64,000 bases of DNA, taken from assembly GCA_964016885.1 (NCBI GenBank), contig OZ024740.1, positions 35,774,001 through 35,838,000 on the forward strand. Reading direction: 5' to 3'. The notes below the pieces were generated by a model. It searched no databases. It was not told where the DNA came from and saw only the letters and a list, made by a program, of their open reading frames with translations. Every line of letters starts with the position of its first letter. Position 1 is the stretch's first letter. The position numbers and the translations under genes were made by a program. This document shows positions 10,501 through 11,768 of this stretch, piece after piece. Source of the DNA: Eledone cirrhosa. Its lineage: Eukaryota.

Positions 10501-10581
10501 AAGCAAAAATGTAGAGGCGAGAGTGGATGGTTTTAATTGTTTTGGTGTGTTGTTAATTTGTTTGTTTGTTAATGGCAGCAA
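7561..10581 (-). CDS. LINE ORF2: APE endonuclease + reverse transcriptase (~1006 aa)
   Basis: APE motifs LNAQG, LTET, YRPP, MGDFN, LDL, SDH. RT motifs NYRPISL, LDFSKAFD, SGVPQGTVLGP, FADD, RDLGV, RPHLEY. No stops; the listed start is TTG. Confidence 0.95.
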   Translation of the reverse strand: MLPLTNKQINNTPKQLKPSTLASTFLLNAQGISPSTNTQKWKIKFLEDWIDVHPNHIPFFVLTETHLSNLHLEAEVKVKNFKAIRADRAGRRKGGTAIYVHNSFSTEAMNIFTNGYCEAVTVFSQTNNLLVVGLYRPPQTPVPCFKECLNSIKCFIQECHPDNILMMGDFNLPGVDWSTNTLPPGSSASTSDREAVESLLDFMDDFFLSQLVLEPTRCHKNVLDLIFSNHTDNIHNIAVEKTLLSDHDMVLCDLRFHRPIYKPNVISPVHPFDAMDFHNANWEAISHDLAHVDWSFTHTHTPTNIKKSWQTFVDTVTNICAKHTPLRTINKSKSRIPRNRKTLIRKIKRTNKKINKLKYCQQQHINLTAISSLEIKKHNLQNNIMSLINNQRRAEEAWAIEKIKLNPKVFFSFAKKHKITGSTVGPLIDENGTLQDNAKTMGEILQKQYCSVFSNPDMADLGCIGDVTPHYTLSDITFGAPDVLAAIKEIKHNSAVGPDRFPACVLKACQHQLASPLANLWRNSLDAGYVPENLLSQSVVPVFKKGNKSLAVNYRPISLTSHIIKVFERVVRSRMTHFLESNNMLNSNQHGFRNGRDCLTQLLHHFDDILRALGEGSNTDVIYLDFSKAFDRVDHNILLRKLSNIGVTGKLLQWIKSFLSNRTQHVVVEGVKSSPAKVSSGVPQGTVLGPLLFIIYINDITDIIKHSNIKIFADDSKLQKVINGVDDRISLQSDLLAVTQWAEKNNMLLNEDKFELIHFGKEDALKLPYSLPSGETLVASNNIRDLGVTVDSNISWTTHISSKVDMARRMCSWILRTFQSRDSRTIILLFSTFARPHLEYCCPLWSPHTKQSIMKLEAPQRAITKKIDGMSDLDYWGRLENLKLYSLQRRRERYIICMMWKMFHHHCPNDVGIAFKIHPRLGPRAIRPIQKSKSQLITTIRHNYFTSIGPALFNITPGHVKTETDHTKFKKSLDKFLQVIPDKPPTPGYVSANSNSLLEWAMVPKS

Positions 10582-11768
10582 TGGGAGTTTGTGCAGTGGG
10601 GTGATAGTGGAGGGTGGTGCTGGGTGATAGCTCGAATGTTTTTTTCCAGTTCTTTTGCCAGATTCATTATGGCTAAAAAAGAGGAAGAAGTTTCCTGTTT
10701 AGAAGACTGTTGGTGACTGTGGTAGTGGTTATTTTTATGTAGGTTATGGTTTTTGTTTTTGCTTTTATTTTTAATTTTATTTTCATTTATCCGACGGGTC
10801 CCCGGGAGATGGGTAAAGGGACAATCCCGGTCTAAACACAATCTGTCTCGCAGGGAAAAACGGCAGATTTGTGGATTCCTTGTTTGAGTTATTGGTGGTT
10901 GTGTTGGTGTTAAATTAGAGTATGTATTATGGTGGTGGCTGTTTGTGGGGATAGATCGTTTTGTCCTAGGTAAATGGGTGAATTTGCAGCCACTATCCGT
11001 ACATATTCTATAGCGTAGAGAGTAGCGGCAAATGATGGGGTTTCGAGTGGGTGGGTATGTGGGTGTGGGTGTTGTGAGAGGTGTAGATGATGGTTTGGGT
11101 AGGATTTGACGACCTTTGTGGACTGTGGGAGGGAGAGTTCTTGTTCTGGTATTAGAAGGTAAATTCCTTGACATAGCAGTAGACAAAAATGTTGTAGTAG
11201 TAGTAGTAGTAGTAGGCAGAGATGTTGGCTGTGGTGATGATTGGATTGCTGGGCCAGAGAAAGGATGTGGCGTTTCATGCTGTGAGACAGAGGCTACTGG
11301 GGGGTCAATAGTTTCATTTAGTAGATCGGCCATTGTTGATGAATCAAGGAGTGGTTCACACTGTTGTTGTCGTTGTTGTTGTTGTTGCTGTTGTTGATGT
11401 TGTTGTTGTAGCTGTTGTTGATGTTGTTGTTGTAGCTGTTGTTGATGTTGTTGTTGTAGCTGTTGTTGTTGTTGCTGTTGTAGCTGCTGTTGTTGTTGTT
11501 GCTGCTGCTGGACAGCATTCGAAGAGAAAACACACCGTAGTTTATCCAAATGTTTATTGATTAATTTAAAAGCAATTTCGATTTGCTTTAATTTATTTTG
11601 AATCTGTTGTTCAGATCGAGTTTTCAAAAATTGAACTGTACGTTTAGCAATGTCGTTCAGAGATGAAGCATCTATGTCTTCAGTTTGGGAAAGGCAATGC
11701 CATGTGTTTATTAGAATGTCGATTTCATTATCAGACCAGTTCTGTTTGGATTTTTGCTGGTTAGCCAT
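10569..11768 (-). CDS. LINE ORF1 (399 aa): Myb/SANT-like N-terminus, polyQ, two CCCH zinc fingers
   Basis: NWSDNEIDILINTW...RSEQQIQNKLK; Q-run; CRYSLRYRICTDSGCKFTH and CRFSLRDRLCLDRDCPFTH. Confidence 0.85.
   Translation of the reverse strand: MANQQKSKQNWSDNEIDILINTWHCLSQTEDIDASSLNDIAKRTVQFLKTRSEQQIQNKLKQIEIAFKLINKHLDKLRCVFSSNAVQQQQQQQQQLQQQQQQQLQQQHQQQLQQQHQQQLQQQHQQQQQQQQRQQQCEPLLDSSTMADLLNETIDPPVASVSQHETPHPFSGPAIQSSPQPTSLPTTTTTTTTFLSTAMSRNLPSNTRTRTLPPTVHKGRQILPKPSSTPLTTPTPTYPPTRNPIICRYSLRYRICTDSGCKFTHLPRTKRSIPTNSHHHNTYSNLTPTQPPITQTRNPQICRFSLRDRLCLDRDCPFTHLPGTRRINENKIKNKSKNKNHNLHKNNHYHSHQQSSKQETSSSFLAIMNLAKELEKNIRAITQHHPPLSPHCTNSHCCH

Follow-up and report, generated by a model that had tools for sequence, protein, structure and literature searches.

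By what route the second open reading frame (ORF2) of a long interspersed nuclear element (LINE) is translated from a single bicistronic RNA remains an open question, which has been solved for few elements (L1 and SART1). Here we describe the junction of ORF1 and ORF2 in a LINE of Eledone cirrhosa that lies on the minus strand of a 64,000-nucleotide stretch of contig OZ024740.1 (assembly GCA_964016885.1, positions 35,774,001 to 35,838,000; this whole stretch is called the window below). In this element, referred to as family A, ORF2 lacks an AUG in front of its endonuclease and is probably translated by low-level −1 ribosomal frameshifting at a conserved U_UUU_UUA slippery heptamer.

Precedent for such a mechanism comes from the Dictyostelium elements TRE5-A and TRE3-A, for which, according to a figure legend in a review, a −1 frameshift is required for ORF2 (PMC5911963). 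The first-pass annotation of this DNA had set the mechanism against the termination–reinitiation mostly used by studied LINEs; it is not unprecedented in LINEs. Like family A, TRE5-A and TRE3-A are APE-type elements without long terminal repeats (non-LTR) that have two ORFs, with APE endonuclease and reverse transcriptase (RT) in ORF2. The same review describes them as amoebal elements targeted to tRNA genes that have both a zinc finger at the C-terminus and an oligo(A) tail (PMC5911963). In contrast, family A has a tandem-repeat tail, and a C-terminal CCHC finger was not detected in its ORF2.

The heptamer itself is that of HIV-1 gag-pol, where it is likewise read as Phe-Leu and a structural ORF is fused to an enzyme ORF; scarce UUA-decoding tRNA is described as modulating the shift (PMC6547452). 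HIV-1, however, has a stem-loop 3′ of the site, whereas none was found in the clade of the window element. Family A moreover is a non-LTR element, and a Pfam scan of it detected APE and RT only, with neither RNase H nor a protease domain; unlike in HIV-1, a fusion protein would presumably stay uncut.

SART1 of Bombyx and L1 share with family A the bicistronic LINE RNA and a low ORF2 output, which for family A is a prediction. For SART1, an overlapping UAAUG stop–start together with a downstream structure is described (PMC3708506, PMC10275272). Unlike SART1, the window element has no AUG at the junction, and in its clade the ORFs overlap by 130 to 325 nt. In Drosophila R1B, ORF1 and ORF2 overlap by 14–59 bp in the −1 frame, a geometry presented without mechanism or heptamer in the text available (PMC2718515); R1B belongs to a different, rDNA-targeted clade, and the −1 overlap is common to both. 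CR1-group LINEs (CR1, L2, L2A, L2B, Rex1, Daphne, Crack, Kiri) resemble family A in having APE and RT without RNase H as well as a variable ORF1. In two surveys of this group (PMC13343379, PMC4120745) the words “frameshift” and “overlap” are absent from the main text. A large frameshifting review, in its available text, names LINEs for HeT-A, TART and L1 only (PMC5009743), and a word search of the accessible text of three further papers (PMC5006619, PMC4700185, PMC3849965) gave nothing relevant. For CR1-like LINEs, a literature search that lay outside most subscription papers, supplements and Repbase entries, where overlaps may be noted, turned up no account of a conserved slippery site. The U_UUU_UUA site described here is most likely a −1 frameshift site, a feature that appears widespread.

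The ORF1–ORF2 junction of family A

The window copy is an intact, full-length LINE of a young family, and the coordinates previously assigned to it on the minus strand hold. The features needed for the argument are the following.

7463–12382, minus strand: full-length APE-type LINE copy (family A), set in a (TA)n microsatellite; ends from the sequence and a blast of other copies
10569–11768, minus strand: ORF1, 399 aa, from ATG 11768 to TAA 10569, with a poly-Gln tract and two CCCH-type fingers
7561–10698, minus strand: ORF2 reading frame, open for 1045 codons, first AUG at codon 148
9838–10506, minus strand: APE endonuclease domain (Pfam PF14529/PF03372; alignment to the human L1 endonuclease), first-motif Asn at 10500, Glu at 10392
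10255–10257, minus strand: first in-frame ATG of ORF2, within the endonuclease domain
8215–8946, minus strand: RT domain (Pfam PF00078, E 4e-31)
10569–10698, minus strand: ORF1/ORF2 overlap of 130 nt from frame analysis, ORF2 frame −1 relative to ORF1
10674–10680, minus strand: slippery heptamer U_UUU_UUA in X_XXY_YYZ phase, 18 nt past the upstream ORF2-frame stop; predicted frameshift site
10638–10644, minus strand: second heptamer A_AAA_AAC in X_XXY_YYZ phase, family-specific
10657–10673, minus strand: GCCA/TGGC hairpin from folding, 4 bp, spacer 0 from the heptamer; unsupported as a stimulator

The first-pass annotation had placed the first Met of ORF2 inside the APE domain, the ORF2 frame −1 to ORF1 and open for about 130 nt into it, and two heptamers in phase; all of this is borne out. 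The Asn of the LLNAQG motif is codon 67 and the Glu of the LTETHL motif codon 103, and both precede the first ATG (10257, codon 148), which lies 45 codons downstream of the Glu motif. In the alignment, this Glu matches the Glu of the IQETHL motif in the human L1 endonuclease. APE enzymes need the first-motif residue and the Glu for catalysis. An ORF2 started at its AUG would omit the first endonuclease motif and the Glu, yet family A was amplified, as seen from 595 exact copies of its junction.

These copies come from a search of the 3.0 Gb genome. Over the 601 bases of the junction region (10300–10900), all 40 scored matches among 1245 candidates were 100% identical, and a 32-nt junction sequence had an exact match at 595 genomic places. 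An assembly or homopolymer error is hence excluded, and since the sequence is identical at 595 places, the junction is real and not an assembly slip. Alignment of copies, which had been suggested as a check, showed no AUG upstream of the APE domain and ORF1 and ORF2 in separate frames. In a census of 80 family A loci, U_UUU_UUA followed by G was intact in 67 and differed in two; one locus was mis-anchored and ten did not span the site. We also considered whether genomic copies exist with the two ORFs fused, but four family A open frames of more than 1,400 codons proved on inspection to be copies 5′-truncated at 10503–10756.

Within the 399 codons of ORF1, U_UUU_UUA and A_AAA_AAC are the only canonical in-phase heptamers. 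When the 43 overlap codons were recoded synonymously, 52% of trials contained one in-phase heptamer or more (P 0.52). The window heptamer by itself is not significant, and the signal stems from its conservation.

Conservation of the heptamer in six lineages

Two further families, B and C, were found in the same genome by searching it with distant endonucleases. Families A, B and C are mutually only 35–37% identical over the aligned part of ORF2. Both B and C have a −1 overlap of the two ORFs (271 and 226 nt, respectively), no AUG precedes the first endonuclease motif, and U_UUU_UUA is in phase. The heptamer was intact in 23 of 27 site-spanning copies of family B (30 loci) and in 16 of 16 of family C (20 loci). 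At one of the 20 family C loci (L116/L237), a 2-nt deletion within the overlap puts ORF1 and ORF2 in a single frame. Family C ORF1 (L117) also differs from that of families A and B by a PHD-like Cys/His pattern next to CCCH fingers, as read by eye, and this pattern is a further point of likeness to the CR1 group.

In a quick tree of 47 rows, the window element grouped with families B and C, with the metagenome lineages L131, L133 and L134, and with nine protein-only homologues (SH-aLRT 99; three rows of the clade fill less than half of the columns). The clade hence offers six lineages with DNA, namely families A, B and C, L131/L132, L133 and L134. All six have U_UUU_UUA in phase near the start of the −1 overlap, and none has an ORF2-frame AUG before the first endonuclease motif. 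The codon in front of TTT TTA encodes Ser, Asn or His, and its third base is T in each lineage. Per site, synonymous codon choice would give the heptamer with a probability between 0.012 and 0.054; multiplied over the five sites outside the window it is about 3e-9, a figure that overstates independence since the lineages share ancestry.

Furthermore, none of the six lineages has a stop in the ORF2 frame between the heptamer and the end of ORF1. This stretch comprises 36–96 codons with a joint chance of 2.4e-5 (0.25 for the window alone), and its +1 frame contains three to nine stops across the lineages. Upstream, the ORF2 frame closes 0–78 nt before the heptamer. A frame that is open from the heptamer to the stop and closed just upstream is what entry of ribosomes into ORF2 at the heptamer would predict.

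The second heptamer fares differently. It is in phase, as the earlier annotation had it, but the other five clade lineages lack it in their overlaps, and it varies in older copies of family A. One might still suppose that A_AAA_AAC is the working site or that both sites add up. It was retained in 62 of 70 young family A copies that span it, as well as in a single copy about 80% identical, and it is the conserved site of other LINE clades (see below). Three other older copies nevertheless do not have it, and no structure was found 3′ of it, which together with its absence elsewhere in the clade leaves this option a very small probability. In family A, A_AAA_AAC is probably an incidental or minor site.

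ORF1–ORF2 overlaps in wider LINE relatives

A metagenome scan provided 154 confirmed relatives. The best 80 of them were retained and joined by three representatives from the genome itself. Among these 83 sequences, 82 had a profile match; 19 were dropped, as the N-terminus of the endonuclease was not in one open frame, and the remaining 63 formed 27 clusters at 50% identity. Each cluster was represented by one hand-picked member, with the members in agreement apart from one locus with a short overlap, and frames of 200 codons or more were taken as ORF1-sized.

ORF1 overlapped ORF2 in the −1 frame in 16 of the 27 clusters and in the +1 frame in three (L137/L139, L156 and L160); in eight there was no overlap within the contig. 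To obtain expectations, every overlap was recoded according to the codon usage found in it, with the ORF1 protein and the open −1 frame preserved. A canonical in-phase heptamer was present in 11 of the 16 −1-overlap clusters against 3.3 expected (P 7e-7), and in 8 of 13 against 2.5 expected for the metagenome clusters alone (P 9e-5), although kinship among clusters and lineages makes these P values optimistic and so counts against the frameshift reading. The identity of the site varies. A_AAA_AAC is fixed in the L143, L146 and L167 clusters, and L150 has G_GGA_AAC immediately before the ORF1 stop. In the L142 cluster, U_UUU_UUA is followed by the stop 3 nt on and, 11 nt downstream, by a stem of 9 bp (z −1.8 to −3.5). 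Over four sequences of the L142 clade, 36 of 36 cells of this stem are paired, with 2 two-sided changes that come from one sequence and are not significant versus shuffles (51/500).

L142, L152, L154, L155 and L162 form a separate LINE clade with this arrangement of heptamer, ORF1 stop 3 nt later and 9-bp stem-loop. A further set (L144, L147, L173, L177, L183, L185, L192 and L201) has −1 overlaps without a canonical heptamer and a conserved TCG GGG GA instead, after which the ORF2 frame holds ATG, CTG, ATA or ATT at one position. These overlaps possibly carry another recoding signal or a start signal.

Frameshifting and its alternatives

We consider it likely that ORF2 of family A is translated by low-level −1 ribosomal frameshifting at the conserved U_UUU_UUA. 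The retrovirus-style fusion proposed in the first-pass annotation has strong comparative support, from which we infer the slip, its rate and the fusion protein. Most ribosomes would pass the heptamer, read 34 more codons and stop, releasing ORF1 protein of 399 aa. A minor share, at a low rate, would move back by a single base when reading Phe-Leu and produce a fusion of ORF1, endonuclease and RT of about 1,402 aa (365 ORF1 residues and 1,037 in the ORF2 frame) that retains the CCCH fingers.

Canonical −1 signals are described as having a structure 5–9 nt downstream of the heptamer (PMC7618472). Other elements of such a signal are present here, i.e., a start-less downstream ORF overlapping in the −1 frame and an in-phase X_XXY_YYZ heptamer conserved at the nucleotide level. 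A short GCCA/TGGC stem pointed out earlier does follow the first heptamer, but with 4 bp and a spacer of 0 it is implausible as a stimulator; its energy is about −4.4 kcal/mol, with z −0.25 over 74 nt and z −1.91 over 44 nt (9/200 shuffles as good). The overlap at 10613–10621 is perfectly complementary over 9 bp to the family A 3′ untranslated region (UTR) at 7535–7543 (0/68 other targets and 3/90 other queries as good). Conserved pairing with the far 3′ end would be expected of a long-distance frameshift element of the luteovirus type; the family A match showed no covariation in one older copy, and in families B and C and L132 such matches did not exceed background. Because no 3′ stimulatory structure was found, the efficiency is predicted to be low; slow decoding of UUA perhaps aids the slip.

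Several observations weigh against frameshifting at this site. In none of the six clade lineages was a hairpin or pseudoknot found at the 5–9 nt spacer, and over the 60 nt 3′ of the site z ranged from +1.07 to −1.86, with no pseudoknot better than shuffles. Five of the 16 −1-overlap clusters do without a canonical heptamer, and in several of them an AUG in the ORF2 frame precedes the endonuclease. Two older, heavily decayed copies (about 70% identity) carry one heptamer change each, at different positions. The Phe-Leu pair opens a similar helix-like ORF1 tail in all six lineages (in family A 36 codons, counted from the slippery site), so that protein constraint on the ORF1 tail would contribute to Phe-Leu conservation. 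The base after the heptamer is G in five of the six lineages and completes an AG. Finally, every one of these lineages shows a near-cognate codon in the ORF2 frame at most about 11 nt away from the ORF1 stop.

Phe-Leu might be kept for the ORF1 protein while ORF2 starts at a near-cognate codon (CUG, GUG, AUA or AUU), through either internal initiation or termination–reinitiation where ORF1 stops. For SART1, reinitiation is described as the established mechanism (PMC10275272, PMC3708506), and for L1 an ORF2 start that does not depend on AUG is described (PMC5009743). Moreover, the ORF1 stop lies near the first endonuclease motif in four of the six lineages. An AUG of the SART1 type, overlapping or adjoining the ORF1 stop in the ORF2 frame, was found in none of the six. 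Which near-cognate codon is used, where it lies and what surrounds it vary among the lineages, and codons of this kind are common anyway. A near-cognate start also leaves unexplained the fixed synonymous choices at the heptamer and why the ORF2 frame runs open for 36–96 codons ahead of the ORF1 stop. We hence regard this route as unlikely.

The AG brings in a second option, raised already in the first-pass annotation, in which TTTTTTAG is a splice acceptor and a spliced RNA links an upstream AUG-bearing exon to ORF2. An AG follows the U run in five of the six lineages, and the window copy has a pyrimidine tract in front of it as well as GTGAGT, which resembles a donor site, at about 12015 in the 5′ UTR. 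The AG is not required, however, because U follows the heptamer in L131/L132, the closest relative with DNA, and C in L152/L154. Two older family A copies of about 80% identity keep the heptamer with A as the following base, a biased sample as they were found in a search for non-G copies. In L134 and in families B and C the bases upstream of the site are purine-rich, and the first AUG past the AG is in the ORF1 frame. Nine genomic copies with a variant at the TAG comprised eight colinear variants, one 5′ truncation and no spliced copy, against 595 unspliced ones, although an exon that itself ends in TAG would escape this count. No RNA run was listed as containing the element. In five of the six sequencing runs that contain this DNA as contigs, all of unrecorded kind and possibly DNA, no joint or loose end at 10672–10673 was present among the contig ends listed, which carries no evidential weight. 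One of the runs (X1) was far deeper at about 10600–10900 than elsewhere, although contigs cannot rank levels.

Alternatively, RNA polymerase might slip on the T run and add one U, so that some of the transcripts would have the frames fused. There are six consecutive T at the site, and copies with longer runs exist, seven with one extra base and one with two. These eight stand against 595 unslipped copies, whereas slipped RNAs that make ORF2 and are copied in cis should dominate. In addition, the G_GGA_AAC of other clades, or their in-phase heptamer with a stem, suit the ribosome better. Both splicing and polymerase slippage are disfavored because their RNAs, having the same 3′ end, should be copied back into the genome and yet are rare compared with 595 plain copies. 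Both appear very unlikely to us, polymerase slippage slightly more so.

If ORF2 is indeed reached by frameshifting, the ORF2 product of such LINEs would be a Gag-Pol-like fusion, and repeat libraries would misannotate ORF2 by starting it at an internal AUG that cuts the endonuclease. A structure-free U_UUU_UUA would then suffice to sustain a very successful element. More tentatively, and at somewhat less than even probability in our estimate, −1 frameshifting could be a common and old ORF2 route in a large share of CR1-like LINEs, with U_UUU_UUA, A_AAA_AAC or G_GGA_AAC as sites and a covalent fusion of ORF1, endonuclease and RT as the enzyme. The clade of the window element would then use a bare U_UUU_UUA and depend on how much tRNA is supplied, on the nascent chain or on a protein that binds RNA, for example its own ORF1. 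A slippery site conserved at the nucleotide level in families with hundreds of intact copies makes the ORF2 question directly testable.

Further features of the element and the window

The remaining parts of the element are listed here.

12029–12283, minus strand: 5′ UTR tandem array of five units of about 51 nt, from the sequence
10974–11030, minus strand: ORF1 CCCH-type finger 1, pattern match
10809–10865, minus strand: ORF1 CCCH-type finger 2, pattern match (weak zf-C3H1 match, E 0.84)
7463–7560, minus strand: 3′ UTR with a terminal hairpin (7501–7514) and a short tandem-repeat tail, from the sequence

A search of ORF1 against Pfam gave no family above threshold. The number of 51-nt units in the 5′ UTR array varies among family A copies. 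The element is a LINE by its N-terminal APE and its RT in ORF2 and by its dispersed copies, many of them 5′-truncated, with a simple 3′ tail. A short tandem-repeat tail and a 3′ hairpin are typical of CR1-group LINEs. The 3′ ends of families A and B have such a tail and a terminal hairpin, and with the lack of RNase H and CCHC finger these are CR1-group-like traits. A tentative placement in the CR1 group as a whole, not in a particular superfamily, is suggested by this anatomy. A protein cluster atlas returned generic APE-RT clusters only, without a clade name, and a viral sequence collection yielded no relative.

The 3′ UTRs of family A (7463–7560, minus strand) and family B (L235) have in common a GG-rich motif, a CATGGCCT block and the terminal hairpin, followed by the short tandem tail. 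The hairpin arms differ between the two families while pairing is kept. This set of motif, block and hairpin is likely an RT recognition signal.

(TA)n arrays flank the element (5200–7460 and 12383–15100 of the window), and many copies of families A, B and C lie inside long (TA)n arrays, which may reflect a target preference. The window finally contains three further, distant RT-like remnants with 25–29% identity, at 27017–27679 (minus strand), 35668–36198 (plus strand) and 39546–40184 (minus strand).

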